Sequence record: NZ_CP035507.1
Source: a plasmid
Length of the DNA stretch: 64,000 nt
Reading direction: 5' to 3' (one strand)
Part shown: in pieces, positions 6,269-53,853 of the stretch
How the letters are laid out: each line of letters starts with the position of its first letter
Numbering within the stretch: the stretch's first letter is position 1
Notes under the pieces: generated by a model
Seen by the model: the letters and a program-made list of their open reading frames with translations, nothing else
Told to the model about the DNA's origin: nothing
Databases searched by the model: none
Made by a program: the position numbers and the translations under genes

Positions 6269-6272
6269 TCGA

Positions 6273-11225: not shown

Positions 11226-12070
11226 CGGGGCGGCAGGGCGAACTTCCCTTCGAGGAAGGGATCGACGCGATCCTGCGCGATACGGCGGACCGGATCGACG
11301 AGCTTTACCGCGCCGCCAGCGAACCAGGCGCCCGCCCGCCGTGGGTGGACCTGTTCGACAGGATCGCGGGTCAAACCCACATGGCCCCGTTCAACCTGAT
11401 GCTGGCCGACCTCCAGCGCCCGGGCGCGCGCTACATTGCGTTCCCCGACAAATGGCGGGAGATTGGACGGACGGTGAAACCGGCTTCGATCCCGATCGTC
11501 GTCCTGTGGCCGTTCTGCCCGGTGCGCTGCGCCTATGAACTGGCGGATACAACCGGGGACCCGGTCGACGACGCCCTTCTGGACAAGGTCTTCGGCGAGC
11601 CCGTCGAGGTTCGGGATGGCCTCATCGACCGTGTAGCGCGCCGCGCCCTGAAGGAGGACCGGATCGACGTGAAATCGGTGAGCCTCGCCTCTACCCTTGC
11701 CGGTGATGCCCGCGCGGTTCCGGTGGATCCGACGGCCAAGGGTAAACCCATAGGACCGGGCTGGGTCGTCCGGGTCAACTCGAACCTCAATACGAACGCG
11801 CAATTCACAACGCTCGTCCACGAACTGGGCCATGTCTACCTCGGCCATCTGGGCGGGAACGGGAAGAAGTGGCCGGATCGGCGGCCCCCTCAATTGGATG
11901 TACGGGAGTTCGAAGCAGAGGCGGTGACATACATCGTCTGCAAGCGATTTGGCTTGCAGTCGAACTCGGCTGAATATCTGAATGGTTATTTGAAAGAGAA
12001 AACCATTGAATTTGTAAGTCATTCTGCGATCGCACGGGCTGCGGGAAGGATTGAACAACATGCCCGTTAG
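11222..12070 (+). CDS. ImmA/IrrE-family (DUF955-like) HExxH zinc metallopeptidase
   Basis: TLVHELGHVYLGHLGG motif (~nt 11818-11850); ATGA overlap with the methyltransferase stop. Confidence 0.6.
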   Translation: MTGRQGELPFEEGIDAILRDTADRIDELYRAASEPGARPPWVDLFDRIAGQTHMAPFNLMLADLQRPGARYIAFPDKWREIGRTVKPASIPIVVLWPFCPVRCAYELADTTGDPVDDALLDKVFGEPVEVRDGLIDRVARRALKEDRIDVKSVSLASTLAGDARAVPVDPTAKGKPIGPGWVVRVNSNLNTNAQFTTLVHELGHVYLGHLGGNGKKWPDRRPPQLDVREFEAEAVTYIVCKRFGLQSNSAEYLNGYLKEKTIEFVSHSAIARAAGRIEQHAR

Positions 12071-12096
12071 TGCAGGTTTGGCGGAGTGATGACAGT

Positions 12097-15000: not shown

Positions 15001-18000
15001 GAGACCGGGCTTTCGGAAAACGCAGGTGTCCTGATCGGCTCCCCCTGTACGCGGATCGGTTGTGACGGGCACCTAGCAGCGGTTGAGCAGGCTGACCGGC
15101 CCGCCCTGCGCCGCGCCCTTCGCTCGGACCGAAACCACCGGGTGGTGGCGCGAGAACATACCGGCATCCTCGAAACGGATGAGCGGCTGCGGATCGAGAC
15201 CGGGTTCATCAAGAGCGAAACCCGCTGGGCCCCGAACCTGATCTCGGCCACTCCGACCCTGGAGATGGGGATCGATATCGGGGACCTGTCCACCCTGCTT
15301 CTGAGCTCGGTCCCCCCGGAGGAGGCGAATTACGTCCAGCGGATGGGGCGGAGCGGGCGGCGCGACGGGAACGCGCTGAACATTGTGCTGGCGAATGCGC
15401 GTGCCCATGACCTCCAGTTCTGGGAAGACCCAACCCCGATGCTGGCAGGCCAGGTCCGGCCGCCGGGCGTGTTCCTCGCGGCCGAAGAGGTGCTGCTTCG
15501 TCAGGTGACCGCCTATACCCTCGACGCCTATGTCGCGGCCACGAAGGAGAGCGGGGATTACGGGAAGGTCCGGGACGTGCTGAAACGCCGGGCCTCCGGC
15601 GCGACCGAAGGGTTCCCGGTTGAGTGGCTTGAACTGGTTCGCGAAACCGGGCCGGAACTGGCAGACCGGTTCCTGTCTGGCCTGCCGCAAGAGGTGCAGG
15701 ACCGGACGGATCTGGCCGACCGGATCCGATCTTACCTGACCGGAACGGACCCGAAATCGATCGGCTGGCGCGTCGGGGAGGCCTTCGACGGAGCTGCCAC
15801 CGAACGGGCCCGGCTGGTGGAAAAGCGCGAGGAAGCGACCAAGGAACTTGGTCGGCTCAAGAAGCGCCGGGCCGAGCTGACCGATGAAGAATATGAGCGT
15901 CGTGAACAGGACCTGACCCGGGACCGGACCGAGATCAACCGTCTGATCCGAAGCGGGATCGACGATGTGCCGGTGATCAAGTTTCTGACCGACAAGGGAA
16001 TCTTGCCGAACTACGCCTTCCCCGAAGAAGGGGTGAAGCTGACGTCGATCCTGTCGCGGCGCAACGATGGCGCGACAGCACGGGACGAGGACGGGCTTCT
16101 GCACGTCGAATACTCCCGGCCCGCCAGCTCCGCCCTGTCGGAATTCGCGCCGGGCCAGTTCTTCTACGCCAACGGGCGCCAGGTGCAGATCGACCGGATC
16201 GAGATCGGCAAGGAAGATTTGGCCCGCTGGACCTTTTGCCCAGCCTGTTCGCATGTCGCGCACCGGATTGAGGGCGCCGAGACCCGCACCTGCCCGCAAT
16301 GCGGGGACGAGATGTGGTCGGATAGCGGCTCCGCGCATGACGTGGTCCAGCTCAAGTCTGTCATCGCGATCGACAGCGAGGAAAAGGCGGCGATCCGGGA
16401 CGGGGATCAGCGGGACCAGCGTCAGTTCGACCGGGTTCTCATGCCCTTCCATGGACCGGAAGACATCGCCGCCTCCTGGTTCACCAGCCGGGAGAACGGT
16501 GCCCCGTTCGGGTTTGAATTCCTGCCCAGTTGCACGTTCCGCGACTTCAACTTCGGGACGAAGTCCACCCTCCCCGGGCCGCGGATCGCGGGCGAGCGTC
16601 GGCCCGCACAGCCGTTCCGGATCTGTCGCCACTGCGGGTCCCTTCAGGGTCCCCCACGCGGCGAGGACGATCGCGGAACGCACCCGCCGAACTGTCTTGT
16701 CATGCGGGATGAGGACCTGCTTCGCGAGCAGTGGGAAACCGGCGTGTTCCTGATGCGAAAGTTCGACACGGAGGCGATCCGGATCGTGATCCCGGTGGTC
16801 GGGGACGCGGATGATGATGACCTGAAAAGCTTCGTCGCGGCGATCAACCTCGGGATGCGGCGTCACTTCGCGGGGAAGGTCGACCATATCCGGTCCACCA
16901 TCTTCCAGGCGCAGCTGAACGGAATGACCACGGTTCGCAGCCTTTACCTCTACGATTCCGTGCCGGGCGGATCAGGCTATCTGCGTCAGATCGCGGAACA
17001 TCCGAACACGATGCGCGAGGTTGTCAGCCGCGCGGCGGAGGCGCTCCGGGACTGCCCCTGCAACCAGGAGCCGGACCGGAACGGGTGCTTCCGCTGTGTG
17101 AAGCCCTACCGGTCACAGTTCGGGCCCGGCGAGCCAGATCGGGACCGGGCGCGGCAGATGATGGAGGCGATCCTCGAGAAATGGGACAGCCTGACCCAGA
17201 CCGAGACCGGGATCGACGCGTCAATTCGGGGCGCGCTGGTCGAGAGCGTGCTGGAGAAGCGGTTGCTGCGCGCCCTTTCCGGCTTCTATGGAGACGGGGC
17301 GCTGACGCCGCAGGTGCTGCCGGGTGGACGGCGTGGGTTCGTCCTGCGCGCGGGTCGGCCGGACGCGCCGCGCCTCTGGACGATCGAGCCGCAGGTGCAG
17401 ATTGACGCGCGGTTCCGGGGCCTGCCCCGCAAGCGTGTCGACTTCCTGCTCACCCCGGTTGGCCGCAGCAGCGGCCTGCCGATCGTCATCGAAATGGACG
17501 GGATCGAGTATCACGCGGGTACGGTCGCCCAGGACCTGTTGGACCGGATGTTGATGATCAGGTCCGGGCAGGTGCGGGTCTGGACCCTGTCCTGGCGCGA
17601 TCTTGACCCGGAGGACAAGGGCTACCTGAACCCGCTCTCTGAAACCGCCCTCGGGGCGCAGATGACCGGGCCCCTTGGGCGTGCGCTGGCGCATCCGCTG
17701 CTCGCCCCACATGCAGAGGCGGTCCGGACGCTTCAGACAATCAGCACGCTCGATGCACTGAGGCGCCTTCTGGACGGGGATGCGGACGGGGATGCGGTGA
17801 TCCGGTCCGTCCTGATCCGGGGCCTCGTGAAGGGCGGTCGCCCCATCGACCAGCTTCCCCGGCAGGCGGCCCTTTCAGAGGCGGGGCGCCTGTTTCTCTC
17901 CGGTACACAGGCGGTGGAACAGGTCGGGGTCGGGGCGCTCGATCTCTATCTGGCCTGTGAGAAGATCTCGCCCACCGAATGGGCCCAATCGGTTCGCGAC

Positions 18001-18498
18001 CTTCGTCTTCTCCTGCGTTCGGTCCTGCCCGATCCGGGCGAGGTTCCGGCCGCGAAAACCCTCTACACGGAGGCCTGGCGCGGGCTCTGGCGGATCGTGA
18101 ACCTGTTCCAGGGCGTGCGTGGTCTTCATGTCGAGTTCGACGGGCTGGACACGTTGGCCCCACCCGATATGGTGGAACCCGTCGACCAGGGGGACCAGGG
18201 CCCCGGCTTGGCCGCTTGGGAAGAGGTGCGGGCGCTGTGCGACGACGCGTTCCACCCGTTGATTGACGCGTTGATCGCGGCCGAGGCGCCCGGGCCGGAC
18301 CACTTCGGGGACGATCTGGTTGCGGGCGGACGCGTGGTGGGCGCTATGGAATTCGGATGGTCGGATACCCGCGTCGCGGTTGCCGAAACATCCCTTGAGG
18401 GGGTCGGCTGGGCGCTGATCCCGTTTGATCCGGAAACCGATCAGATGGGGGAGACGGTCTCGCGAATTATCACGGCCCTTCAGGAGGCACGGACATGA
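12097..18498 (+). CDS. Giant DExH helicase / DUF1998-like Zn module / DUF559(Vsr-like) nuclease fusion protein (DrmA+DrmB-like), ~2133 aa
   Basis: Motif I ATGTGSGKT (~12415), DEMH, SAT, helicase-C LEMGIDIGDL...QRMGRSGRRDG (~15250-15370), CPACS...CPQCG Zn ribbon (~16240-16310), CPCNQEPDRNGCFRC (~17055-17100), DUF559-like VDFLL...IVIEMDGIEYHAG (~17440-17520). An alternative GTG start at 12070 overlaps the preceding stop. Confidence 0.75.
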   Translation: MNPILLARHVQDSLRELVHTTLNSTSPAFEGMVDRFITEPANFLKGPWISVDMPFRQIDGAKEGTWAQPFPEVPLKFAPYQHQTDAFARLSGTAMRSTLVATGTGSGKTESYLWPILDHCRRNKGKPGIKAILIYPMNALATDQARRIADALTRIPSLNGVRAGIYADAEPQNPAHEVTEDSVITHRETMRKNPPDILLTNYKMLDYLLLRGRDKPLWAQNDPETLRFLVVDEMHTFDGAQGADLALLLRRLKYRLNTPEGHLICVGSSATLGSGEEAATDLRQYAETIFGEPFDAGAVVRETRKSPNEVFGDAEYLDRPDPADIHGALRAATEMDQPGAARRLAVCLFPDRTDPDLAFLDTGDPADPAWRIALGDRLVQHHLCQRTLKIIAEHKGPASLEAIAAGLGQVRVLRDWPEADLTALAELVVGLVAWARSGSAESPRPLFNVRLQLWIREMARMVTTLPRLEAGGVRSQIDLFHEMDLERDQLCRALPVVNCNRCGATAHLGRQDARSKSLHADLEQLYQEFFDENGADRIRLIYHESIDRMVPASGAGGQIVKGVLNAETVEFTPADHKDLGPGPASQVWLYNPTDANGRIDRTCPACGQARGLLLFGMRAARLTTGITGTLYTSEQNEESPEAKPRFLMFSDSVQDAAHRAAVAETRNALSVYQKALYGALRSAETGAMSLKEVIEDVPRAQLNDLGPDGFTALFIPKELTWRRRYRELVESGATITDPVFLDHIRIRLGWEYFVDLSYRAHFNHTLELNGMAAADVPTDLLRLSAERLARELRNDLPGAPEFDPALLTRLLAGVTQRMRRQGSVAHPYLESAIANGKGNYGLNWYAAAIQVGVGKTGSLPSPDSRRGLAPIPVTLGAAPTGFEKITRTGPASWYRDWLFRLIGPSDLRYGADPDAIYPLLLRRLEADDIVRRVNGPEGQNRHAWLLVPERVTVSTATIGLCCDLCGRRETGLSENAGVLIGSPCTRIGCDGHLAAVEQADRPALRRALRSDRNHRVVAREHTGILETDERLRIETGFIKSETRWAPNLISATPTLEMGIDIGDLSTLLLSSVPPEEANYVQRMGRSGRRDGNALNIVLANARAHDLQFWEDPTPMLAGQVRPPGVFLAAEEVLLRQVTAYTLDAYVAATKESGDYGKVRDVLKRRASGATEGFPVEWLELVRETGPELADRFLSGLPQEVQDRTDLADRIRSYLTGTDPKSIGWRVGEAFDGAATERARLVEKREEATKELGRLKKRRAELTDEEYERREQDLTRDRTEINRLIRSGIDDVPVIKFLTDKGILPNYAFPEEGVKLTSILSRRNDGATARDEDGLLHVEYSRPASSALSEFAPGQFFYANGRQVQIDRIEIGKEDLARWTFCPACSHVAHRIEGAETRTCPQCGDEMWSDSGSAHDVVQLKSVIAIDSEEKAAIRDGDQRDQRQFDRVLMPFHGPEDIAASWFTSRENGAPFGFEFLPSCTFRDFNFGTKSTLPGPRIAGERRPAQPFRICRHCGSLQGPPRGEDDRGTHPPNCLVMRDEDLLREQWETGVFLMRKFDTEAIRIVIPVVGDADDDDLKSFVAAINLGMRRHFAGKVDHIRSTIFQAQLNGMTTVRSLYLYDSVPGGSGYLRQIAEHPNTMREVVSRAAEALRDCPCNQEPDRNGCFRCVKPYRSQFGPGEPDRDRARQMMEAILEKWDSLTQTETGIDASIRGALVESVLEKRLLRALSGFYGDGALTPQVLPGGRRGFVLRAGRPDAPRLWTIEPQVQIDARFRGLPRKRVDFLLTPVGRSSGLPIVIEMDGIEYHAGTVAQDLLDRMLMIRSGQVRVWTLSWRDLDPEDKGYLNPLSETALGAQMTGPLGRALAHPLLAPHAEAVRTLQTISTLDALRRLLDGDADGDAVIRSVLIRGLVKGGRPIDQLPRQAALSEAGRLFLSGTQAVEQVGVGALDLYLACEKISPTEWAQSVRDLRLLLRSVLPDPGEVPAAKTLYTEAWRGLWRIVNLFQGVRGLHVEFDGLDTLAPPDMVEPVDQGDQGPGLAAWEEVRALCDDAFHPLIDALIAAEAPGPDHFGDDLVAGGRVVGAMEFGWSDTRVAVAETSLEGVGWALIPFDPETDQMGETVSRIITALQEART

Positions 18499-20666
18499 CA
18501 GACACAATGACCAAGCGGGTCTCCTACGACATCGGCTGCATGAAGAGCCTGCGGAAACTGCCGGACCGGGTTGCGCTCCGGTTCATGGACCTGATGACCA
18601 AGTATATGTCGGACCCGTCCGCGAATGGGCTGAACCTGGAAACGGTGGAAGGATCGAGGGACAGCTCGATCAAGTCCATGCGGGTCGACCAGGGGTATCG
18701 GGCCATCGCCTTCGAGGTCGGCCGCGACATCATGTTCGTGCATGTCAACGAGCACGACAAGGCCTACCGCTGGGCGGCAGGGCGCCGGGTCAAGCTCGAC
18801 CCGGAAACGAACCGGATCCGGGTGATTGAGGAGGTGGACGCGGTTGTCGAACCGGTGGCGACGCCGGATACCTACGCTCCTCGCCTCTTCGACGAGGTGA
18901 CGGATGCAAGGCTGCGCGCCCTCGGCGTGCCGGAGGAGGAGCTGACGGCCGTTCGTCAGATCCCCACGATCGAGGCGCTGGAAGGCGCGGAGGACCGGTT
19001 CGATCCGCTCACCTATCAGATCCTTTACGCGGTCGCGGCCGGTTATGCGGATGAGGAAATCCAGTCCCTGACCGGGGTCGGCGCGGAACCGGACGCGGAA
19101 CCGCAGCAGCCCGCCGCGGAGCTGACCTTCGGAAAGCTGATCGAGACCGAGCAGAGCCGCCAGACCATCTTCATTCCCGAAAGCGAGGAGGAGCTGCGCC
19201 GCGTTTTCGAGGAGGGGCTTGAGGGCTGGCGCGTGTTCCTGCACCCCGAACAGCGCAAGATCGCCTACCGGGACTACAACGGGCCGGTTCTGGTCCGGGG
19301 CGGGGCTGGTACCGGCAAGACTGTCGTCGCGATGCACCGGGCCAAGCACCTTGCAGACCAGATCAAAAACGATCCGACCCGATCCGGCCAGCGGGTCCTT
19401 CTGACCACCTTCACGACCAGCCTCGCGCATGACATCGAGGCGAACCTCCGGACCCTGTGCCCTGACCATCTGGACGCCCGCCCGCCCCGGATCGAGGTGA
19501 TCAACCTCGACCGCTGGGTCTCTCAGTTCCTCAAGCGCAAGAGCTTCGCCCGCGAGGTCGCCTTCTTCGGCGAGGCGCGGGACCGGCTGGACCAGGTGTG
19601 GAAGGAGGTCTTCGATGATCACGAGCTGCCCGAGGGGCTGTCTGAGCCGTTCGTTCGCGCGGAATGGGCGCAGATCGTCCAGGCGAAGGGGCTGACCGAT
19701 CAGAAGGGATACCTGAAGGCGTCCCGGGCCGGCCGGGGCACCCCTCTCGACCGCAAGAAGCGGGCGGTGCTGTGGGACATCTTCGCCGATTACCGGGCCC
19801 GGCTGATCAGCGAAGGGCTCGCGGAGCCTGACGACGCTTACCGCGAGGCGACCGAGATCCTGACCTCCGAAGCGCCGAACCTGCCCTACAGCGCGGTCAT
19901 CGTCGATGAGGCGCAGGACATGGGCGAACAGGCGTTCCGGCTGATCCGCGCGATCATGCCCGAGACCCCGGCGGGGGACCGGAACTCCCTCTTCATCGTG
20001 GGCGACGCGCATCAGCGGATCTATGGGCGGCGGGCCGCCATGTCCGCCTGCGGGATCAACGTGCGCGGCCGCTCGAAGCGCCTCCGCCTGAACTACCGGA
20101 CCACGCAGGAGATCCGGGCCTGGGCGGTCTCGGTTCTCGAGGGGGTCAGCGTTGACGATCTTGATGAAGGGACGGATACCCTACGCGGTTATGTCAGCCT
20201 CATGCGCGGGGCCGCCCCCGAGCTGGTCGGGTGCCGGACAGAGGCGGAGGAGCTGGACGGGCTGGTGGCCTGGGTCCGGGCCCTGCCGCCCGACCAGATC
20301 CGCCTCTCCGACATCGGGGTCCTGTGCGCGCGTCGCGCCGACGCGGACCGGGTTCAGGCGGCGCTCCGCGCGGCCGGTATCGAGACGGTGATGCTCCAGT
20401 CCGGTGCGGACGACCGGTCCGTTCCGGGGATTCGGATCACCACGATGCACCGGGCGAAGGGGCTCGAGTTCTTCGCCGTGGCGATCCCCTTCCTGTCCGA
20501 GGCGGCCTTCCCGCCACCGGGTGCGCTCCGGGCCGCCGTGGATCCGGCAGATAAGGAGGACATTATCATGCAGTACCGGTCCCTCCTGCATGTCGCTGCG
20601 ACCCGGGCGAAAAAAGCTCTCCGCATTTCATGGTCGGGGACGCCAACTGGCATTTTCACGGTCTGA
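18495..20666 (+). CDS. UvrD-like SF1 helicase with an ~120-aa N-terminal accessory domain
   Basis: Walker A VLVRGGAGTGKTVVAMHRA (~19300), VIVDEAQDM, C-terminal ITTMHRAKGLEF; ATGA overlap with the upstream giant gene. Confidence 0.75.
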   Translation: MTDTMTKRVSYDIGCMKSLRKLPDRVALRFMDLMTKYMSDPSANGLNLETVEGSRDSSIKSMRVDQGYRAIAFEVGRDIMFVHVNEHDKAYRWAAGRRVKLDPETNRIRVIEEVDAVVEPVATPDTYAPRLFDEVTDARLRALGVPEEELTAVRQIPTIEALEGAEDRFDPLTYQILYAVAAGYADEEIQSLTGVGAEPDAEPQQPAAELTFGKLIETEQSRQTIFIPESEEELRRVFEEGLEGWRVFLHPEQRKIAYRDYNGPVLVRGGAGTGKTVVAMHRAKHLADQIKNDPTRSGQRVLLTTFTTSLAHDIEANLRTLCPDHLDARPPRIEVINLDRWVSQFLKRKSFAREVAFFGEARDRLDQVWKEVFDDHELPEGLSEPFVRAEWAQIVQAKGLTDQKGYLKASRAGRGTPLDRKKRAVLWDIFADYRARLISEGLAEPDDAYREATEILTSEAPNLPYSAVIVDEAQDMGEQAFRLIRAIMPETPAGDRNSLFIVGDAHQRIYGRRAAMSACGINVRGRSKRLRLNYRTTQEIRAWAVSVLEGVSVDDLDEGTDTLRGYVSLMRGAAPELVGCRTEAEELDGLVAWVRALPPDQIRLSDIGVLCARRADADRVQAALRAAGIETVMLQSGADDRSVPGIRITTMHRAKGLEFFAVAIPFLSEAAFPPPGALRAAVDPADKEDIIMQYRSLLHVAATRAKKALRISWSGTPTGIFTV

Positions 20667-20685
20667 TGATTGTAGCGGTTTTATC

Positions 20686-21786
20686 TCAAACCATGAGCCA
20701 ATACCGCGTATGGCGCCGCTCCCCGGTACGGCTAAGCGCGCCCATCTCCACCAGGTCCTGCAGGTCCCGCGTTGTGGTGGCGCGTGACGTGCCGGTTATG
20801 GCGATGTAGTTCTCGGCGCTGAGGCCGCCTTTGAACCCGTCGGGCCCCTCGCGGAACATGCGCTCAATCACCTTGGCTTGTCGCTCGTTCAGTCGATCAC
20901 GGAACTGGTCGTAGAACTTCGCCTTGGCGATGAAGAACGCGACCCGTGTCAGCGTTACCTGCTGCGCCTTCAGAACGATCTCGGCGAACCAGATCAGCCA
21001 GCCGGTTACGTCCAGCGTCTTCTGGTGGGTTTCGAGCTGGTCGTAGTAGGCTTTCCGGTCCCGTTCGATCGTATAGGCCAGCGCGATTAGGCTCGGCTGG
21101 CCGATGTTCTGCGCAAGGGACTTTTCCGCCAAGGCGCGGCCGAGGCGACCATTGCCGTCCTCGAAGGGATGGATGCTTTCGAACCAGAGGTGCCCAAGCG
21201 CCGCGCGGGTTAGTGCTGGCAGGGGCGTTGTGCCGTCTGGCGCCGTTCGGTTGAACCAGTCGACGAACACGTCCATCTCGCCCTGGACCTGCGCGGAGGG
21301 CGGCGCCTCGAAATGCACCGTCGGCCGGTCGATGCGACCGGAGACGATCTGCATCGCGTCGGCATGTCGCCGGTAGGCCCCGATGGTTTCGAGCCCGCGG
21401 TCATGTGCCAGGAGCATCCCGTGCCATCGGCTGAGGGTCTCGTGGGTCAGAGGCGCGCCGTAGGTCGAGTAGACGTCGACCATCATCTCTGCGACGCCCT
21501 GTTCCTTGGGCTTCGATGGCGCACCGTCAGTGATCAGACCGAATTGCCGCCGGAGGGAGGATTGCACACTGCCCCTGTCTAGCACCTCGCCTTCGATGGC
21601 GCTTGTCCGCATCGCCTCTTCACTCAGAAGTTCGATGCGCAGGCGGTCGCGTTCATTGCCGGTCACATGGCGGACGGCGCCGAGAATCTCGCCGGATGAC
21701 AGTAGGAACCGCCGCTCGAGAGGTTCGATGGCAGCGCTGTCATAGACGAAATTCGGCCAGTCGGGTTGATTCCAGTTCCAGCGCAT
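20686..21786 (-). CDS. Fic/DOC family protein with a C-terminal wHTH
   Basis: HPFEDGNGRLGRAL motif (~21140-21185 on the minus strand). Confidence 0.85.
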   Translation of the reverse strand: MRWNWNQPDWPNFVYDSAAIEPLERRFLLSSGEILGAVRHVTGNERDRLRIELLSEEAMRTSAIEGEVLDRGSVQSSLRRQFGLITDGAPSKPKEQGVAEMMVDVYSTYGAPLTHETLSRWHGMLLAHDRGLETIGAYRRHADAMQIVSGRIDRPTVHFEAPPSAQVQGEMDVFVDWFNRTAPDGTTPLPALTRAALGHLWFESIHPFEDGNGRLGRALAEKSLAQNIGQPSLIALAYTIERDRKAYYDQLETHQKTLDVTGWLIWFAEIVLKAQQVTLTRVAFFIAKAKFYDQFRDRLNERQAKVIERMFREGPDGFKGGLSAENYIAITGTSRATTTRDLQDLVEMGALSRTGERRHTRYWLMV

Positions 21787-24770: not shown

Positions 24771-27108
24771 GGCGCGCGGCGTTGGGCCCGCCCTCTTCGA
24801 TCGTAACTGGAGCCGGGTCTCGGGCAGCTGGCAGGGACTCGCGAAGAAGGCGCAGATGGTCCGGGCAGCGCGTGGCTACTCGCCGGCCATCTTCAAGCCC
24901 ATCTCGAAAGGCGGGTGCCACACGGGCGCCCAGCTCAAGGCCCAGCTGACCTACCTCACCACAAAGTCGAGCCACATCCTCGACAGCCGCGGCACCCATG
25001 ATGGCAAGAAGACCCTGACCGAGGCCGAGATCGACCGGGTCGTGCGGCGCTTCGAGAACCAGTGGGGCGAGCGGCACAGTCCGAAGCTCGGCCATACCTC
25101 GCATCTCCTGATGGCCTTTCCTGTGGGCACCAGCGGCGAAGAGGTGCGCGCGATCACCGAGGCGGTCTGCGAGCGGTTCTTTCAAGGTGAGGGGTCGCAA
25201 TTCGACTATATTGCTGCAATACACCAAGATCGCGCGCATCCACATGCGCATATCGTTCTGAACCGCCGCAGCAAGGATGGCGAAATGTTCTTTCTCGGGA
25301 AGGATCACCACTTCAACTACGACGCCTTCCGGGTGGCGATGGTCGAGGCGGCGCAGGTCCACGGGATCCGACTCGAGGCCACACGGCGTCTTGACCGGGG
25401 GGTCACGACCTACCGTGCCGAGATCGACGAGGTCTACAAGGCACGTGACGAAGGCCGACCGCCCGTCGAGCGCCAGCGCACAGGCGCTGATCTCGCCGCA
25501 GCCCTGGAGACGGTGGCGCGCAATGCGCTGACTTATCGCGGTCTTGCAGCAGAGGCATCCCGGTCGAACTTCGATGACGCGGCCGAGGCGCTCGAGCGGG
25601 CCAGCACCATCCTTGCCAGTGGCGGTCAGATTCAATCTGACGGAGCCATCTACATGTCCCAAGACGAAACAGCGTTCGACACGCTGATCACCGAGTTTTC
25701 CCAGAACATCCGTCAGATCGAAGCGGCGATCGACCGGGCACCCGCATCCGAGCGACCGGAGATCGAGCGCAAGCTCACCGATGTGCTGGCCTCCGTTGCG
25801 CATCTCAATCCGCTTGGAGACCGCTCGGCTGCACTTCTCGACGCACCATCCCGGGATGGGGTCTATGCGCGGGCCAACATGCGTGAGGACCAGATGGGAC
25901 GCCTTGACGACGCCTCGGTGAAGGCGCGCCTCAGCGAGGCGCTGCAAGGCACGGGCATCGACCCCGAAGCCGTAGCCGCCCGCATGCGCGAGGGTGCTGG
26001 CAACGCCGCGCTCGAACGACAATGGCTGGCGCAGGATCTGCGCGCCATCGCCAACGCGGGTGACCTCGATCTGGAGAAGGGCGAGGACCGCGAGGAAGCG
26101 CTCGACCGGCTGGAAGCCGTACATGTCCGCCTGGGCGATACTCTGACCGATGCGCGCATCCTGCGGGCTGTCGATGAGGTGGATGAGACCGAGGATGACC
26201 AGGTTGCCCTGGCCGAAAGGTTGACGCTGCCTGAGCGCGAGCGCGCGGCGGGTGAGCCCGACATCTTCGCCCCATCCGAGCGCCGGGATTTCCAGGAGCT
26301 CGTCGCCCAGTTCCGTCGAACGGATTTCGACCATCCCTTCTCGGACGATCCGTCCGTGCGCCGAGCCGGTGCCGTCGAGGTGGAAGAAGCCCGCGCCGCC
26401 TTCAACGCCTTCGCGCAGCGGTCGCCCGATCATGCCGAACTGGCCTCGATGGCCTGGGACAAGATCACCGACAGCCGCAAACCGCAGGAGTTCGCCGTCG
26501 AGGAAAAAGACCGCACCCTCAACGCCGGCGACATGGACCTCGCGCTGCGCGATCCGATGCAACATCTCGGCCCGATCACCGAAGACGACCGCACCCTCGC
26601 GCGCTACCGCGCGGAGATGCCGGACGAGGAGTTCGGGGCGGCGGTGCAGGAGGAAATCAACCAGCTGCGCGCCATGGGCGCATCACGCGCCTACATCAGC
26701 GAACGGAGCTTCGACATCGAGGATCAGGCGCGGCAGGATTACGCCGAGCGGCGTTTCATGGCTGAGACTGCCCCTGATGTGTTGACCTTCCTGCAGCGGG
26801 CCGAGGCCGAGGATGTGAAGCCGCTCTCCGAGACCGACGGGCAGCGCCTGATCGCCCAGATCGACCGCAACCTCACGCCGAACGCTGTGACTGCCCTCCG
26901 CGCAGGACACGCGGATGTGCTGGACAAGTTCACCGAGGACCCAATTCGGCAGTTGGAACTTGCCAAGGCCTATCTGGAAAGCAGCGAAGTAACGGCGCAC
27001 GGCCCCGCGATGGAACGGGTGCTGGATGCCCTGGCCGAGGAGCAGATCGAGGCGCAGCGCGCCCGCCATGCCGCGGCCTATGGCGAAAAGGGGATCACCC
27101 ATGGATAA
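24757..27108 (+). CDS. Relaxase (MobA/MobL, MOBQ-like)
   Basis: Three-His motif HQDRAHPHAHIVLNR; overlaps the mobC stop. Confidence 0.8.
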   Translation: MARSEARGVGPALFDRNWSRVSGSWQGLAKKAQMVRAARGYSPAIFKPISKGGCHTGAQLKAQLTYLTTKSSHILDSRGTHDGKKTLTEAEIDRVVRRFENQWGERHSPKLGHTSHLLMAFPVGTSGEEVRAITEAVCERFFQGEGSQFDYIAAIHQDRAHPHAHIVLNRRSKDGEMFFLGKDHHFNYDAFRVAMVEAAQVHGIRLEATRRLDRGVTTYRAEIDEVYKARDEGRPPVERQRTGADLAAALETVARNALTYRGLAAEASRSNFDDAAEALERASTILASGGQIQSDGAIYMSQDETAFDTLITEFSQNIRQIEAAIDRAPASERPEIERKLTDVLASVAHLNPLGDRSAALLDAPSRDGVYARANMREDQMGRLDDASVKARLSEALQGTGIDPEAVAARMREGAGNAALERQWLAQDLRAIANAGDLDLEKGEDREEALDRLEAVHVRLGDTLTDARILRAVDEVDETEDDQVALAERLTLPERERAAGEPDIFAPSERRDFQELVAQFRRTDFDHPFSDDPSVRRAGAVEVEEARAAFNAFAQRSPDHAELASMAWDKITDSRKPQEFAVEEKDRTLNAGDMDLALRDPMQHLGPITEDDRTLARYRAEMPDEEFGAAVQEEINQLRAMGASRAYISERSFDIEDQARQDYAERRFMAETAPDVLTFLQRAEAEDVKPLSETDGQRLIAQIDRNLTPNAVTALRAGHADVLDKFTEDPIRQLELAKAYLESSEVTAHGPAMERVLDALAEEQIEAQRARHAAAYGEKGITHG

Positions 27109-29071
27109 GGGCAAGATCGCGGGCGGGATCCTCAGCCTGACGCTGGTTGGCCTCGCCATCGGCTATGTCGTGGCCACGGGCTACCTCACCATTCGCTATG
27201 GACTGTCAACGCAAGCCTTCGATGCCACCCTGCTCGCGCGGGAATACCGGGCGCTTGGTGCCAGCGCCCCGCGGGACTTCCTCTGGGTGAACCTGATCCT
27301 CGCAGGCTTCGGCGTTGCCTCGCTCATGTTGAGTGTCACGCTTCTCGGCGATGCCCTGACGCGCTTCGGCACGACGCATTGGCAGACCCGGGGCGAGATG
27401 AAGAGGAATGGTTTCTTCGCCAAGCCGGGTGGCGGCTTCCTTCTCGGCAAGCTCGGCCCCCCGAAATCGAAGCGCCCCTTCCTCGTCTCGAAGACCTTCC
27501 CACACGCACTGATCGTGGCACCCACGGGTCGGGGCAAGGGCGTGGGCTTCGTGATTCCGAACCTGCTCACCTACAAGGGCTCGGCCGTGGTGCTTGACGT
27601 GAAGGGAGAGAACTTCCGCGAGACATCGCGCTTCCGTGCCACCATGGGCGACAAGGTGTTCCGGTTCGCGCCGACCGACTGGGACCGCCCGACGCATCGC
27701 TATAACCCGCTGGCGCGCATCGCGGCGATGACCAATCCCGACCGGCAACAGATGGAACTGAAGCTCACCGCGAAGCTCTTCCTGCAGACCGACAACGAAA
27801 AGCTGAGTGGGCTACTAGCAGGCGGCATTGATCTGTTCGTGGCGGCCGGTCTTCTGGCCTTCGAGCGCGGCGTGCCGACCATCGGTGAGATCTACCGCAT
27901 CACCGCCTCGGGCGGTGACAAGCAGAAGGAGTACCTGAAGCGCGCGCAGGAGGTGAAGAACACCTCGGCCAAGCTGATCTTCGAGCGCATGGCCTCGACC
28001 AACAACGACACCCTGACCTCTTACCTCTCTCTGCTGATGACCTCGGGTCTCGACACCTGGGACAACCGTGCGATCGACGCGGCCACTGCGACCTCGGACT
28101 TCTCTTTCCGGGATATCCGGCGTCGCCCTCACGCGATCTACCTCGTGGTCGAGTCCGAAATGATCCGCCCTTTGGCCCCGCTGATCCGGCTGTTCTTCTC
28201 GGACCTGATTGCCTCGCTGCAGGCGCAGGAGCCCGACGATGACGAGCCATGGCCCGTGATGATCATGCTCGACGAGTTCGACCGCCTTGGGAAAATGCCG
28301 ATCGTAGCCGAGAGCATCAAGACTCTGCGCTCCTTCGGCGGCAACCTTGCCATTGTCACCCAGACCATCCCGGCGCTGGACGAGATCTATGGCGAGAACA
28401 CACGCCGGTCGCTGCAGGGCGGCGCGGGCGTGAAGCTCTACCTCACCCCGTCCGAGCAGAAGACCATCGAAGAGCTGAGCCAGGCCGTCGGCAAGACCAC
28501 CAAGCGCGTCGTAACCCGATCCCGCGCGGTCGGACGTAACCCCTTCGAGGGCCGGAGTGTTTCCGAGCGGACAGAGGACACGCCGCTCCTGACCGAGGAT
28601 CAGGCTCGGCGGATGGACCTCGACGAGGTGATCCTCGTGATCGACGCGCAGATGCCGATCCGGGCGCGGCGGATCAAGTATTTCGAAGACCCGGCGCTGA
28701 AGGTGCTTCACGCGGGTCAGGCGGGGAGTTTCCCGTACCCTGATGAGGACGGGCTGAGGCGGGATCGGCAGATGACCGAAACGCGGGAGACGGTTGAGAA
28801 GCTGAAACAGGAGTTACAGGAGGTTCGGGCGGCGGCAGGGGCGCAGGGAGTTGCAAAGGTGCCAAATGAAGAGCCACCCAAGGGGCCACATGTGCGAAAA
28901 CCTGAAATCGTAAGTCGGGCGCGTGGCCGAGCGGCCCGGGCTGCTGCGGGTATTGCCGGAGGAAGTCAATTGTCGTTCGACCCTGAAGCACTTGGGTTGA
29001 AGGAGGCAGACAAGACCATGCTGGCGGCGGCGGTTCAGACGACACGGGCCATTATTGCCGAGTATGCGTGA
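27101..29071 (+). CDS. virD4: Type IV coupling protein VirD4/TraG
   Basis: N-terminal transmembrane segments, Walker A IVAPTGRGKGVG; ATG 27101 overlaps the relaxase stop. Confidence 0.85.
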   Translation: MDKGKIAGGILSLTLVGLAIGYVVATGYLTIRYGLSTQAFDATLLAREYRALGASAPRDFLWVNLILAGFGVASLMLSVTLLGDALTRFGTTHWQTRGEMKRNGFFAKPGGGFLLGKLGPPKSKRPFLVSKTFPHALIVAPTGRGKGVGFVIPNLLTYKGSAVVLDVKGENFRETSRFRATMGDKVFRFAPTDWDRPTHRYNPLARIAAMTNPDRQQMELKLTAKLFLQTDNEKLSGLLAGGIDLFVAAGLLAFERGVPTIGEIYRITASGGDKQKEYLKRAQEVKNTSAKLIFERMASTNNDTLTSYLSLLMTSGLDTWDNRAIDAATATSDFSFRDIRRRPHAIYLVVESEMIRPLAPLIRLFFSDLIASLQAQEPDDDEPWPVMIMLDEFDRLGKMPIVAESIKTLRSFGGNLAIVTQTIPALDEIYGENTRRSLQGGAGVKLYLTPSEQKTIEELSQAVGKTTKRVVTRSRAVGRNPFEGRSVSERTEDTPLLTEDQARRMDLDEVILVIDAQMPIRARRIKYFEDPALKVLHAGQAGSFPYPDEDGLRRDRQMTETRETVEKLKQELQEVRAAAGAQGVAKVPNEEPPKGPHVRKPEIVSRARGRAARAAAGIAGGSQLSFDPEALGLKEADKTMLAAAVQTTRAIIAEYA

Positions 29072-29072
29072 C

Positions 29073-29094
29073 TGGCCCATACCGGCCAGTCGGC
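29073..29094. terminator. Hairpin GACTGGCC-cataccg-GGCCAGTC immediately after the virD4 stop
   Basis: Read directly from the sequence; no T-tract (high-GC genome). Confidence 0.3.
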
Positions 29095-29195
29095 GTTATG
29101 CAAAGGCGCTGCTCTCGCAGCGTGTATAGCTGCCATTCGATAGGGCAAGCACAATGCCTCGATCCGCCTTCAGTCACAGTGTGCAGGCGAAGGAG

Positions 29196-30644
29196 CTACA
29201 TAAAGAAGCTATAGCGCGTTTGCACCCGGTCATTTTCTCTAACGTACTTGAGTATCTTTCCCACCTTGCGTGACGCAGCGATAGTAATCGGGTCTCGGTT
29301 GTCGAATTGCGTATTGTTCCAATTCATCTTGCTCAATGCCAATATCTCTGCGGCATTGTGGGTGACCGGTTGAGAAGGAGCCTGTGACCGGATCATCAAA
29401 GGCTTGGGAATGTACATCCCGGTGTATGTTTTGAAGAAGTCCACACCGCCCCGGCTGTACAATATCGCACGGTCGCGATCCAAACGCAGCAACGTACCGC
29501 GCAAGGGTGGAAACTGCCCGTCGCGGAACAGCCGGAAGGCGCTTGGGGCGACCGCCATGCAGTCCAAGTTATCAATTCGGCATTCCTCTACGGCGGCGTC
29601 GAAACCCGCCATTTCTTCCCTGTGAAAGGGCGACGTCTTATGCAGCACCACCCGGGCCGGATACTGCGAATGCTGGTCGTAGTAAGCCTGCATCGAGCGG
29701 GAAAGCAGGTCGTGCGCGTGAGCCTCTGTCATATAGGGCCGCCGGTCGTCCGACAGCTTGGCGGCGCGCCCCCCGCGCAGGATCATGCCTTCGCCCCGCT
29801 CGTCGAACATCTGCGCGGTGCTGGTTTCAAGGTACTCGCCGCCGCACGACTCGTGGAAGCTAATTCCCACGAAGCAGGAACGCATCTGCCGGGAATCCCG
29901 CGCCAAACGCCACGGTAGACCGCCCGCCTTGTAGTACAGCGCCGTGAACAAGTTCCATGCGCGGGTTGCGTCCTCCTGCACCTCGCGAAAACTGTCAGTT
30001 TTCGTCTTTCGGGGAATCTTGATCGTTGGATCGTACAGCGTGGGCCAGAAGATCTGAATGGGCAGGCCGAACTCCATCGCAGCGATCTTCAATCGCGCAC
30101 GGAAGTCCAACCCTGAGGGCGCCGCCGCGTCCTCCACCACATCATCGTCGTCGGCGCTCACATTCACCGCCGCAATCACGTCCAGCGGCAGGCCGATTAG
30201 CACCACGTCTGGCCGGGTGTTGCCCTCGGCCAGCGCCCGCAGCTCCGCCACGAACAGGTCGGCGTAGCGATCCGCTAGGTCCAGCGGATTTGTGTTCTTC
30301 AACTTATTCAGTGTTCGGGCCGGTATTGTGCGGGTGTCCTGCTCGTCGCAGGTGAAGGCAACTCGGAACGGGCCGTCAGACGTGCAGCCTGGGAACGGCG
30401 GATACAGGTTCGTCAGGCGGGTGTCCGCTTTGCCATCGATGCCAGCGGCGCAACGCGCGAACCAGCCTTGGGTGCCCTCCACCGTTTCCGTGTCACCGAT
30501 CAGACCCACTCGCACGGCGGTCGGCGCGCCGGTTTGTCCGGCGTCCAGCGGGCCGTAGTCCATGAGGCCGAACCGAATGTCGATGTGGCGATGCGCCTGC
30601 CCGAACTCCAACTCGGGTTCCGGCAAGTGGGACAGCTTCATCAT
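29196..30644 (-). CDS. Short prokaryotic Argonaute (MID-PIWI), SPARDA-type partner
   Basis: PIWI-type LYYKAGGLPWRL motif (~29915-29950), ~480 aa; GGAGG lies 10 nt upstream of ATG 30644; ATGA overlap with the upstream gene. Confidence 0.7.
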   Translation of the reverse strand: MMKLSHLPEPELEFGQAHRHIDIRFGLMDYGPLDAGQTGAPTAVRVGLIGDTETVEGTQGWFARCAAGIDGKADTRLTNLYPPFPGCTSDGPFRVAFTCDEQDTRTIPARTLNKLKNTNPLDLADRYADLFVAELRALAEGNTRPDVVLIGLPLDVIAAVNVSADDDDVVEDAAAPSGLDFRARLKIAAMEFGLPIQIFWPTLYDPTIKIPRKTKTDSFREVQEDATRAWNLFTALYYKAGGLPWRLARDSRQMRSCFVGISFHESCGGEYLETSTAQMFDERGEGMILRGGRAAKLSDDRRPYMTEAHAHDLLSRSMQAYYDQHSQYPARVVLHKTSPFHREEMAGFDAAVEECRIDNLDCMAVAPSAFRLFRDGQFPPLRGTLLRLDRDRAILYSRGGVDFFKTYTGMYIPKPLMIRSQAPSQPVTHNAAEILALSKMNWNNTQFDNRDPITIAASRKVGKILKYVRENDRVQTRYSFFM

Positions 30645-31933
30645 AGCAGCAAGCCCTCCGTGTCCGGTGGGGTGGCGCGCACGGGTTTCCAAAGGTCGTC
30701 GGGCACACCAAAGTCCGCAACCAGCTTGTCGACTGGCGCGAGGGTCAGATATGGATATGCTCGCCGAAACATATCCTCCTGCTCACCCGTACAGAGGTAA
30801 GCCCGCCACATGCCGAATTGGCCGCGCACGTCGGGATTCCACTCCATGCGCTTGATCTTGGACAGATGGTCGCCGCCGTATCCGTCTTTCTCTCTGCCGT
30901 CTCGCGTGAAGTGGTAGGTTGGCGTTATCTGCACGAACCACTCTTCGCCGATTCGCATAAACTGCCAACTAAATGCCGAATGCCGCCAGAAGCTCCGATA
31001 CTGCTTGGCGACGAAGCGGTCAGTATTCTTCTTTTCCGCATAGTAAGTAATCTTGCGATCACGCTTGCCAGGGTTCGGGCGGAAATAGAGCGTGTGGTGA
31101 TCGCGGTCGTAACTCATATCCTGGCGCACCATTTCCTTCATCGCGCGGTTCAGCAGATCCACGAAATCGCGCTCCCTGTCCGGGTCGTCCGATAGCGCCC
31201 ATTCAGACAAATCGAACTCTTCCATAGCGCCCGTGTCGCAGGCTTCTCGCCACGGTAGCTCGTCCAGGTTGCGGAAAGACAGCACCGCCCCGCCGCGTAA
31301 AATTGCCTCGCCCGGCGGATAGGGGTTGTGTTCCTTCACCCTGCGCCAGAACTCACCCACGCTCTTGGCATCGGTCGGCGCCCAGTACAGCTTCGTCGCC
31401 ATGGCCGAGACGCGCAGCAGATTGGTAGTCAATTCTTCGGTTCGACGTGGGGCCGAGTAGTAGCTGCCAGGCCGCGCGGTGGCGGCCACCTCTCGCAGCG
31501 CCCTGGCAGCGTCGGCGGTGAACAGGTCCGCCGTCTTATCGAACTGCACCTTGCGGTTGGCCCGGTTCTGGGGGTCTCTGAACCAAGTGCGTACGTCCTT
31601 CCAGTAGGCGCGGTCTGCGGTTAAGTCTACCACGATCAGCACCACGGGCGCGGTGCCGAATGTCCAGTAGTCGATATCGCGCTCGTCGCAGGGCCAGTGA
31701 AAGCCAGTGTCCGTGTCTCCTGGCAGACGATTTCCAGTGGCCTTGCTCTGAAACTGGACAATCTGGTTGGCAACCTCACCCGTTACCGGGTCGCGGATTT
31801 CGATGGTGCCGTCGATACCGGCTTCCACGCCACCAGTTTCGTAGAACAGGTACTCCATTGCAGCCACAACCTTTCGGATGTGCGCTATTCCTTGTTCACC
31901 TTTTACCCCAGAAGTATGTATTTTCTTGCCCAA
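30641..31933 (-). CDS. DREN(DUF4365, PD-(D/E)xK)-APAZ effector of a short-pAgo system
   Basis: N-terminal GIDGTIEIRD...QFQSK nuclease-like motif, ~430 aa, directly upstream of and coupled to the short pAgo. Confidence 0.7.
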   Translation of the reverse strand: MGKKIHTSGVKGEQGIAHIRKVVAAMEYLFYETGGVEAGIDGTIEIRDPVTGEVANQIVQFQSKATGNRLPGDTDTGFHWPCDERDIDYWTFGTAPVVLIVVDLTADRAYWKDVRTWFRDPQNRANRKVQFDKTADLFTADAARALREVAATARPGSYYSAPRRTEELTTNLLRVSAMATKLYWAPTDAKSVGEFWRRVKEHNPYPPGEAILRGGAVLSFRNLDELPWREACDTGAMEEFDLSEWALSDDPDRERDFVDLLNRAMKEMVRQDMSYDRDHHTLYFRPNPGKRDRKITYYAEKKNTDRFVAKQYRSFWRHSAFSWQFMRIGEEWFVQITPTYHFTRDGREKDGYGGDHLSKIKRMEWNPDVRGQFGMWRAYLCTGEQEDMFRRAYPYLTLAPVDKLVADFGVPDDLWKPVRATPPDTEGLLL

Positions 31934-32046
31934 GGAACGACACCACTAGAATTTGTTGCTGCTCGACGAGCGAGCACCATAGGGTGTGCTGGCGACAATT
32001 TCAATGTCATCGGTCTGCCATCACCTAAGCAAGGCTGTGGTCAAGA

Positions 32047-32140
32047 GGGCTTTGATGGTGTGACCGCCCTCTTCGTGGATCATCGATGACTCACCCTGGC
32101 ACACAGATGCCGTCGGGTGGCGGTCACACCATCAAAGCCC
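32047..32140. repeat. Perfect 22-bp inverted repeat GGGCTTTGATGGTGTGACCGCC / GGCGGTCACACCATCAAAGCCC with a 50-bp spacer
   Basis: Read directly from the sequence; it lies between the short-pAgo/DREN-APAZ pair and the 3' end of virB6. Confidence 0.5.
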
Positions 32141-32141
32141 T

Positions 32142-33167
32142 TCACCGCCCCAACCGCTTTGCCCTCTCAGCCATCCGCACCACTTTCGCGCTCGCGGTCG
32201 CCGCAGCGCTCCGAACGGCAGCGGGTGCTTGCACCGCCCCCCGCCCGATCGCCTCACCCGTGGTCAGCGCACCGATCCGCGCCCTACCCTGCACGCCTGA
32301 CGTGTTCACCAAGCCCCGGAGCACCCCCGCAGATCCGCTGACAATCGCAGGTGCCGCGGCCACCATCAGGTTCCCCGAGATCCCGCGCACGATCAGGGGC
32401 GTAGCCGCGACGAACCCCTTTGCCAAGAACACCATGACGAAGAACGGCACTAGTGAGCCGATGTTGGTGGCCGAGTTCGGATCGCCGAGCTGGGCCAGCA
32501 GCGAATTCGCCATGCCGACGACGGTCGAGAACATGGCGGCGATGACGACGGGATAGAAGGCGTAGCTGATCGTCGTCGAGACCCATCTGTGGAAGAAATC
32601 CTTGGTCGCATCGAAGAGCGACAGAGCGATCATGATCGGCGCAAGGCCAAGCATCAGGGTCAGCATCATCTTGGCGAAGATGAGGACGATTCCGGTCATG
32701 AAGCCGAGCAGACTCAAGAGCACCAGGCCGATGCCGCCGAGGATCGCGCCCGTCATCCAGTTCAGATTGCTGCCGATCGCGTTCAAATATGTCGCGAAGC
32801 GCTCGATCAGGTTGTCGAATTCTCCCGCGAAATGGGTTGCGCCTGCGCCACCTCCGCCGACCGACGAAACCAGCGCGCCGGCGACATAGTCGAGGCCTCC
32901 GATCACGGCGTTGGACACCGCGTTGAAATTGGCCCAGTTAAACGCGAAGAGACCTATCAGCGTCAGCTTGATCAGGTACCAGAAGAAGCTGGCCCCATCC
33001 ATGCTGCGGAATTGGAAGGCCATGTTGATACAGACGCCGATCAGGGAAAGCGTGACCATCAGAAGGACGATCGTGCCGGTATTGCTGGCCACAGCCCCGA
33101 ACTGGGACTCGGCAGCATCGACAAGGAAACCGTCGGCGGTTTCGACCATCCAACTGACGACGCTCAT
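32142..33167 (-). CDS. virB6: VirB6/TrbL-family T4SS inner-membrane protein
   Basis: Multi-TM protein with Gly-rich stretches at the end of the virB operon. Confidence 0.7.
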   Translation of the reverse strand: MSVVSWMVETADGFLVDAAESQFGAVASNTGTIVLLMVTLSLIGVCINMAFQFRSMDGASFFWYLIKLTLIGLFAFNWANFNAVSNAVIGGLDYVAGALVSSVGGGGAGATHFAGEFDNLIERFATYLNAIGSNLNWMTGAILGGIGLVLLSLLGFMTGIVLIFAKMMLTLMLGLAPIMIALSLFDATKDFFHRWVSTTISYAFYPVVIAAMFSTVVGMANSLLAQLGDPNSATNIGSLVPFFVMVFLAKGFVAATPLIVRGISGNLMVAAAPAIVSGSAGVLRGLVNTSGVQGRARIGALTTGEAIGRGAVQAPAAVRSAAATASAKVVRMAERAKRLGR

Positions 33168-47264: not shown

Positions 47265-47357
47265 TACAAGGCCGCGATCGATACCGAGCGTGAAGCTGTG
47301 CTCGATCAACTGGCCGCCGACGCTCAAGAGCAGGACATGGGCTACCGCTCGAAATGA
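47265..47357 (+). pseudogene. 3' remnant (30 codons) of a putative antitoxin gene truncated by IS copy 1
   Basis: Open frame ...YKAAIDTEREAVLDQLAADAQEQDMGYRSK* ends in an ATGA overlap with the PIN gene start. Confidence 0.4.
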
Positions 47358-53852: not shown

Positions 53853-53853
53853 C

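Follow-up and report, generated by a model that had tools for sequence, protein, structure and literature searches.

The window analysed here, a 64,000-nucleotide stretch of sequence record NZ_CP035507.1, very probably contains an intact two-gene SPARDA system, probably of clade S2B, which is arranged as a self-contained cassette of ~2.9 kb in a variable slot between virD4 and the virB operon of a conjugative element. The system consists of a gene for a DREN-APAZ effector and a gene for a short prokaryotic Argonaute (pAgo), both of which are located on the minus strand. The effector gene (positions 30641-31933) starts with a TTG codon and encodes a protein of 430 amino acids (aa) with an N-terminal DREN/DUF4365 nuclease domain of the PD-(D/E)xK type and a C-terminal APAZ domain. 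The pAgo gene (29196-30644) encodes a 482-aa protein, which comprises only a MID and a PIWI domain and is predicted to be catalytically inactive. The effector gene is located upstream of the pAgo gene in a one-operon layout, and the same arrangement is found in three related cassettes from other DNA, referred to here as L008, L012 and L013. The two genes overlap by 4 nucleotides (nt) in the sequence ATGA, in which the ATG of the pAgo gene occupies positions 30644-30642 and the TGA of the effector gene positions 30643-30641. A preliminary description of this DNA had listed a 430-aa gene and a gene of ~480 aa together with their coordinates, the overlap and several motifs, and all of these could be found in the open reading frames (ORFs) or the sequence: GIDGTIEIRD (aa 39-48) and QFQSK (aa 60-64) are present in the translated effector and LYYKAGGLPWRL is located at aa 235-246 of the pAgo.

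The effector can be assigned along its entire length. Aa 13-149, encoded by positions 31487-31897 of the minus strand, match the Pfam family DUF4365 with an E-value of 1.8e-23 and 83.6 bits at a cut-off of 24.3, in agreement with the DUF4365-like PD-(D/E)xK domain proposed earlier for the N-terminus of the 430-aa protein. Aa 1-422 match the PADLOC model Aga_REase-PNTD1-PNTD2 (6e-146), and phmmer searches against PDB sequences yielded the DREN-APAZ chains 9qbp_A (1.9e-46) and 9jsb_D (6.9e-44 over aa 1-418). Since the partner is a DREN-APAZ protein along its whole length, as seen with both the PADLOC model and the alignment to 9jsb_D, the label 'SPARDA-type' given in the preliminary description is correct. 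Chain 9jsb and related PDB entries belong to NbaSPARDA of Novosphingopyxis baekryungensis (PMC12205087; bioRxiv 10.1101/2023.06.08.544223). The chains that match best (9qbl/9qbq/9qcc and 9qbp) most probably belong, between them, to the systems XauSPARDA of Xanthobacter autotrophicus Py2 and EaeSPARDA of Enhydrobacter aerosaccus (bioRxiv 10.1101/2025.04.08.647717). In pairwise alignments, the effector is 33% identical to the partner proteins of XauSPARDA and EaeSPARDA and 29% identical to that of NbaSPARDA. The deposited XauSPARDA and EaeSPARDA chains have a length of 458-467 aa as compared to the 430 aa of the protein encoded in the window; the alignments suggest that they possess ~14-23 extra residues at their N-termini, which are probably tags.

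Four residues of the DREN active site, E37, D41, Q62 and K64, could be read from the translated effector. They align with residues of identical numbering in XauSPARDA and EaeSPARDA, and D41, Q62 and K64 correspond to D41, Q60 and K62 of NbaSPARDA. Furthermore, all four residues are invariant in four aligned cassettes. It has been shown for XauSPARDA that the E37A exchange lowers nuclease activity, while D41A, Q62A and K64A abolish it (bioRxiv 10.1101/2025.04.08.647717), and mutagenesis of NbaSPARDA revealed that its catalytic residues D41, Q60 and K62 are required (PMC12205087).

The second protein of the pair matches the PADLOC model pAgo_I with an E-value of 5e-166 (aa 2-482, model positions 1-455), and the best phmmer matches among PDB sequences are the SPARDA Argonautes 9qbp_B (2e-114), 9qbl_B (8e-114) and 9jsb_A (2e-103). 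According to pairwise alignments, it shares 44% identical residues with 9qbl and 9qbp and 40% with the Argonaute of NbaSPARDA, 9jsb. Its alignment with SPARDA Argonautes of 482-485 aa starts at residues 6-8 and extends to residues 469-479, and the protein possesses neither an N nor a PAZ domain. XauSPARDA and EaeSPARDA resemble the pair in the window in the order of effector and pAgo gene, in domain layout, in the alignment of the Argonautes over their full length and in the nearly equal size of these proteins (482-484 aa). The previous designation as a MID-PIWI protein is thus borne out by the matches to pAgo_I and to the solved SPARDA Argonautes, with the Pfam Piwi model remaining silent.

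The pocket that accommodates the 5'-phosphate of the guide is preserved. In NbaSPARDA, R183, K187 and K240 hold the 5'-phosphate, and F182 and W201 line the pocket for the base. R183, K187 and K240, which form the RK motif and a further lysine, align with R182, K186 and K239 of the pAgo studied here, and Nba F182, W201, Q224 and N232 correspond to F181, W200, Q223 and N231. Guide-pocket positions hardly vary in the 120 nearest homologues, of which 119 have K186, 119 have K239 and 107 have R182. The glutamine and the asparagine that contact the second guide base (g2U), which are also kept between the window and XauSPARDA and EaeSPARDA, are retained as Q223 and N231.

The PIWI domain, on the other hand, does not possess a complete catalytic DEDX tetrad, as has also been reported for NbaAgo. 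TtAgo, taken from plasmid pTT27, served as reference, and its tetrad D478/E512/D546/D660 was confirmed in the translation. A profile of 26 pAgo homologues was aligned to TtAgo using hhalign with a probability of 94%, whereby a confident block covers residues 307-445 and confidence is near zero outside of it. Within this block, TtAgo D546 pairs with T337 ('RVLLLRD546G' versus 'RVVLHKT337S'), and the tetrad is therefore incomplete. The positions of D478 and D660 are located in the low-confidence part of the alignment, in which the best registers yield S262 and A457; whichever register is chosen, the stretch ITIAAS (residues 453-458) offers neither an acidic residue nor His. The candidate tetrad columns of the 120 closest homologues contain S/A/N (262), T/S (337) and A (457), and an acidic residue never occurs in them. 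A register that places TtAgo D478 on D281 of the conserved sequence AQMFDERGEG was rejected based on strand order (beta1 FVGISF, beta2 TSTAQMFD). The beta1/beta2 order used to choose the register of the PIWI domain is the one found in other Argonautes.

It is highly improbable that the pair represents another type of short pAgo system (SPARTA, SPARSA, SPARHA or SPARMA), or that a long catalytic pAgo has been misread as a short one. SPARHA with an HNH-APAZ effector (PDB 9om4; PMC12738770) and SPARTA and SPARSA with TIR- and SIR2-APAZ effectors, respectively, also combine a short inactive MID-PIWI protein with an APAZ-containing effector. Moreover, they share the abortive-infection logic with SPARDA, and SPARHA forms filaments as well. 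Weaker matches to SIR2-APAZ, TIR-APAZ and HNH-APAZ proteins are found with PADLOC and PDB sequences (for instance 9om4_A with 6.5e-17, covering the APAZ part only), and SPARTA and SPARSA Argonautes match the pAgo with E-values of 1e-21 to 1e-30. These matches are, however, limited to the parts that the systems have in common, APAZ or MID-PIWI, and are far weaker than the SPARDA scores, which also holds true for the SPARHA Argonaute (1e-65). The N-terminal domain of the effector is a DUF4365/DREN domain of the PD-(D/E)xK type with its catalytic residues and not a TIR, SIR2 or HNH domain. A long active pAgo, an intact tetrad of which had been named in the preliminary description as the observation that would speak against SPARDA, does not fit a protein of 482 aa that lacks N and PAZ domains and has T337 where TtAgo has D546, and both possibilities were rejected on the basis of domain content and the broken tetrad. 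The SPARDA assignment agrees with every sequence-level feature checked, and the locus is therefore considered a member of this already described family. Its putative placement in clade S2B is derived from scores: the nearest characterized relatives are XauSPARDA and EaeSPARDA, which belong to S2B according to the literature, and NbaSPARDA, whose DUF4365 effector type has been described as the most abundant one in this clade.

Both genes are under purifying selection, since dN/dS values range from 0.04 to 0.07: in comparison with the nearest cassette, L008 (87% nucleotide identity), dN/dS is 0.042 for the pAgo gene and 0.071 for the effector gene, and the pAgo gene has a value of 0.052 in comparison with L012. 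The TTG codon of the effector gene is the first start after an in-frame TAG. It is a credible start because it is conserved in two other cassettes whose upstream DNA has diverged, and because the resulting N-terminus MGKKIH aligns with Met1 of the NbaSPARDA DREN-APAZ protein (MTKKIT). Upstream of the TTG codon, at a distance of 43 nt, a consensus scan revealed a promoter-like site on the minus strand (TTGAAA-17 nt-TATGGT, 31976-32004). L008 and L012 share its two hexamers despite the divergence of the DNA around them, and the cassette thus appears to carry its own putative promoter. Read-through from the virB operon into the cassette is also possible; the effector gene begins 208 nt downstream of the last stop codon of this operon and is encoded on the same strand.

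That the pair is a decaying or silent remnant without current activity is very unlikely. Such decay, or an assembly error that mimics it, does happen in this lineage, as illustrated by a copy in Pseudoroseicyclus tamaricis (NZ_JAAFYS010000001.1, locus L023 6683-9448), which is broken up into four ORFs (261-315 aa) that overlap each other and is either pseudogenized or carries assembly frameshifts, and the TTG start of the effector gene could be seen in the same light. However, both ORFs encoded in the window have full length in comparison with the solved homologs, all catalytic and guide-binding residues are kept, the low dN/dS values argue for maintenance of both proteins, and TTG start and promoter-like hexamers are conserved in other cassettes.

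The cassette is inserted between genes for conjugative transfer. At its 3' side, virD4 (27026-29071, plus strand) was identified using the NCBIfam VirD4 model (E-value 1e-130). On its other side, a gene for a 341-aa VirB6/TrbL-like protein (32142-33167, minus strand), which is annotated as TrbL/VirB6 in related records, forms the end of the virB operon; homologs of virB11, virB10, virB9 and virB8 follow after it on the minus strand. The virD4 match and the VirB6/TrbL-like neighbor confirm that the pair sits between virD4 and the virB operon, as had been described. The additional claim that the pair is oriented opposite to the flanking transfer genes is only true with regard to virD4, the relaxase gene and mobC, but not with regard to the virB operon, which has the same orientation; the SPARDA genes are convergent only with the mobC-relaxase-virD4 operon.

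The host element is an alphaproteobacterial conjugative element of the MOBP/MPF_T type and most probably a plasmid. Its backbone is of the kind found in MOBP/MPF_T conjugative plasmids of Rhodobacterales and Martelella, and the closest relative is plasmid pMM259 of Martelella mediterranea (90-94% nucleotide identity, with 94% for positions 1-25000 of the window). A comparison with seven related plasmid loci using blastn revealed that homology stops at or before position 29087 and restarts at or after position 32140, depending on the locus. The first of these breakpoints lies 16 nt past the virD4 stop codon and the second one at the stop codon of the VirB6-like gene. The variable segment between the end of the backbone homology that follows virD4 and the stop of the VirB6-like gene thus extends from 29088 to 32139 and comprises 3,052 bp.

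The content of this slot was compared in ten backbones with a convergent virD4|virB6 junction, namely that of the window and nine others, and was classified using PADLOC. SPARDA was only found in the window. The slot of the Martelella plasmid pMM259 contains AbiL (AbiLi with 3.5e-69, and AbiLii), and those of Haematobacter, Leisingera, Pukyongiella and Thioclava contain Lamassu (LmuA and a split LmuB), the candidate system PDC-M16, Qat, and CBASS with HTH/ImmA, respectively. Metal transporters are found in the remaining backbones: two Celeribacter plasmids carry a nickel transporter (one was read in detail, the other is near-identical), and Mameliella and Actibacterium possess a CDF transporter with ArsR. 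In more distant plasmids, virD4 is not adjacent, and ordinary variable cargo with insertion sequence elements is present beyond virB6. The setting in a slot of a plasmid encoding a type IV secretion system (T4SS) distinguishes the cassette from XauSPARDA and EaeSPARDA.

The variable segment has a GC content of 0.595, the lowest of any 3-kb segment in the 64 kb (mean 0.646), and GC3 of the SPARDA genes (0.72-0.76) overlaps with that of flanking genes (0.72-0.82). The earlier impression of a less GC-rich composition and codon usage therefore holds for a small dip in GC content but not for GC3, which stays within the range of the neighbors. Composition alone is weak evidence for an insertion, and comparative evidence is strong: the sharp breakpoints, the differing slot content and the unrelated contexts of the nearest cassettes all support the previous suggestion that the pair is cargo acquired by a conjugative element. 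Neither direct repeats that flank the cassette nor inverted repeats at its termini were found, and the ORF list shows no gene for an integrase or a transposase in the slot. The simplest explanation for the insertion would be that recombination in the conserved flanks replaced the previous content.

Outside of this backbone, the cassette has close relatives in various contexts. Metagenomic contig L008 shares only the cassette with the window (29079-32009, 87% nucleotide identity); its pAgo is 95% identical at the amino acid level and is encoded beside a reverse-transcriptase/trypsin gene. The L012 pAgo (89% aa identity) is encoded beside a gasdermin-protease gene and an integrase gene, and L013, a more distant cassette with 71-73% aa identity, is located beside QatABCD-like genes. 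None of these three cassettes is part of a T4SS plasmid. The best matches in genomes are located on chromosome-sized contigs of P. tamaricis (93% aa identity in the best segment) and Flavimaricola marinus (86%). As with L008, the DNA that these relatives have in common with the window is limited to the cassette. Among the plasmids of PLSDB, homologous short pAgo genes are present in 91, of which 44 are conjugative; none encodes a pAgo with more than 52.5% identity.

These relatives also bear on the possibility that the pair was already present in the ancestor of this plasmid backbone and has been lost from other plasmids, or replaced in them, instead of being acquired here. No integrase, transposase or flanking direct repeat marks an insertion event, and the direction of change is not visible because replacement by recombination leaves no scar. 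Nevertheless, an ancestral origin is very doubtful: SPARDA is absent from the nine other backbones with the same junction, PLSDB holds no closer pAgo than stated above, the nearest relatives (86-95% aa identity) reside in unrelated genomic contexts and the segment has the lowest GC content of the window.

Acquisition into a fixed position is reminiscent of the hotspots in integrative and conjugative elements (ICEs) of the SXT family, in which a fixed site in the conserved transfer backbone contains a different defence system in each relative. The slot described here differs from these hotspots in that it belongs to a MOBP/MPF_T backbone, also accommodates metal transporters and is not accompanied by any dedicated recombination machinery that could be seen. 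A narrow search of the literature retrieved no description of the virD4|virB6 slot.

Assembly into a heterodimer, recognition of DNA targets by means of guide RNAs, filaments induced by the target, collateral cleavage by the nuclease and cell death are known only for the Nba, Cme, Xau, Eae and Tmu systems, and a mechanism can be proposed for the locus by homology. The 430-aa DREN-APAZ protein and the 482-aa inactive pAgo would form a heterodimer, in which the MID pocket with R182, K186 and K239 would bind the 5'-phosphate of small guide RNAs that originate from abundant transcripts. Pairing of the guide with complementary DNA of an invader over ~13-15 nt or more would activate the complex via a rearrangement of the PIWI domain. 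Activated complexes would then polymerize into filaments, thereby bringing the DREN domains together as tetramers, whose active site composed of E37, D41, Q62 and K64 would cleave DNA without sequence preference. The resulting cell death, growth arrest or dormancy could block the spread of plasmids and, in some systems, of phages. Abortive infection and the restriction of plasmids or phage, as named in the preliminary description, likewise derive from work on homologs with 29-44% identity and are thus predictions for this locus.

Several observations weigh against the assignment of the locus to SPARDA and against a simple transfer of this mechanism. No Pfam family, including Piwi, matches the pAgo at E<=1, and NCBIfam models match neither of the two proteins; as a consequence, identification of the pAgo rests on PADLOC models and PDB sequences. 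The asparagine that contacts the first guide base (g1A), which is N181 in NbaSPARDA and N179 in XauSPARDA, is replaced by D180. Of the 120 nearest homologues, 82 have D and 37 have N at position 180, which makes D180 a common natural variant. Furthermore, N444, D448 and A456 are found in place of Nba S447, N451 and R459, for which contacts with the 2'-OH groups or phosphates of the guide have been proposed, and several residues of the Nba dimer and filament interfaces differ, as exemplified for the filament interface by the exchange of R301 by D299 and of D480 by R477. Because identity to the studied systems amounts to only 29-44%, details such as guide type, preference for the 5' nucleotide, filament geometry and phage restriction may differ. 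With regard to the host element, the related backbones were drawn from a plasmid-only collection and do not decide between a plasmid and an integrated element. Finally, XauSPARDA and EaeSPARDA did not confer robust protection against 12 phages in E. coli (bioRxiv 10.1101/2025.04.08.647717).

The latter finding leads to the question of who benefits from the system. It is possible, albeit with a clearly lower probability than the assignment to SPARDA itself, that it serves the plasmid by killing recipients of competing plasmids or by stabilizing its carrier, with phage defence being secondary or absent. The conjugative backbone, the adjoining transfer genes, the activity of the closest solved relatives on plasmids and the occurrence of homologous short pAgos in PLSDB plasmids, many of which are conjugative, are in line with this idea. 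However, NbaSPARDA and CmeSPARDA protect against some phages, the slots of sister plasmids contain AbiL, Lamassu, CBASS and Qat, which are known anti-phage systems, and the nearest cassettes are found in defence islands that look chromosomal. Moreover, this alternative concerns the beneficiary and not the mechanism and is compatible with an intact SPARDA cassette in a variable slot. A more far-reaching proposal is that the virD4|virB6 junction is a dedicated exchange point for defence cassettes, which are swapped by recombination in the flanks, that the plasmid uses SPARDA mainly to eliminate cells taking up rival plasmids, and that D180, present in about two thirds of the nearest homologues, confers a preference for the guide 5' end other than the 5'-AU of the studied systems. 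This combination is rather unlikely, though conceivable.

Several solved structures and in vivo data are already available for the SPARDA family, whose known mechanism remains unchanged by the present locus; the locus is mildly interesting due to its plasmid setting and the defence-rich slot. With 29-44% identity to the systems studied, it is a divergent addition to SPARDA that stems from a conjugative element of marine Alphaproteobacteria. Both genes would stay without a name in a standard annotation because NCBIfam has no model for them and plasmid homologs are labeled as 'hypothetical' or 'DUF4365', and their correct naming is thus useful for annotation. A system that is predicted to sense plasmids and kill the cell while itself riding on a plasmid raises the question of how the carrier escapes triggering it, and which role the system has in plasmid competition. 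In addition, six different defence systems in the same slot across ten backbones provide a natural series for studying the exchange of defence cargo among conjugative plasmids.

At the 3' side of the cassette, an untranslated tail (29070-29195, minus strand) is kept with L008 for ~117 nt past the stop codon. It ends with an 8-bp GC-rich hairpin (29070-29091), which overlaps with the stop codon of virD4 and could serve as a terminator for both convergent genes. This hairpin was not reported by the terminator scan because it is not followed by a T-run; the scan yielded three hits, all of which are located on the plus strand inside genes and correspond to chance level, and no canonical terminator of the cassette. 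A search of positions 28900-32400 against Rfam gave no match at E<=1.

At the opposite side, a perfect inverted repeat of 23 nt with a spacer of 50 nt (32046-32141) starts one base past the stop codon of the VirB6-like gene. As RNA, it folds with -60.9 kcal/mol (z-score -6.5). It is present as a single copy in the window and absent from related plasmids, and relatives are found in other contexts in two metagenome contigs, namely L101 (90% identity over 84 nt) and L100 (75% over 94 nt). The repeat was considered as an end of the cassette, and this was rejected: because it lies outside the homology with the nearest cassette and has relatives elsewhere in metagenomes, it is treated as a separate element, probably a small repeated palindromic one. 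It could terminate or stabilize the virB transcript.

Further features are found at greater distance from the slot. The region from ~3300 to 20300 on the plus strand, which is 94% identical to pMM259, encodes a WYL protein, a DEAD/DEAH helicase, a 1649-aa N6 DNA methylase, a 2133-aa DEAD/DEAH helicase and a UvrD-type helicase. The corresponding region of related plasmids contains type I restriction-modification systems and in one case also Shedu, and it has the appearance of a second variable region for defence in this backbone. Fic-domain genes flank the transfer region at 44105-45367 (minus strand) and at ~20300-21400 (by homology to pMM259), and could encode toxins or transferred effectors. 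Part of the region between 39 and 64 kb has matches of 90-95% in more than 1,000 plasmids of enterobacteria, and GC content rises to ~0.70-0.72 between 48 and 52 kb. In the ORF at 47354-48319 (plus strand), a PIN domain at the N-terminus (aa 6-112) is joined to aa 176-318, which correspond to the C-terminal half of a MadM malonate/sodium symporter; this ORF probably results from a fusion or truncation where the DNA was rearranged. Transposon genes are located at 52962-55733 and 57625-60510 and comprise a short ORF with a Mu-transposase C-terminal domain followed by TniB and TniQ, as in Tn5053/Tn402-like elements, as well as a 961-aa transposase of the Tn3 family; a tyrosine recombinase is encoded at 61410-62234.

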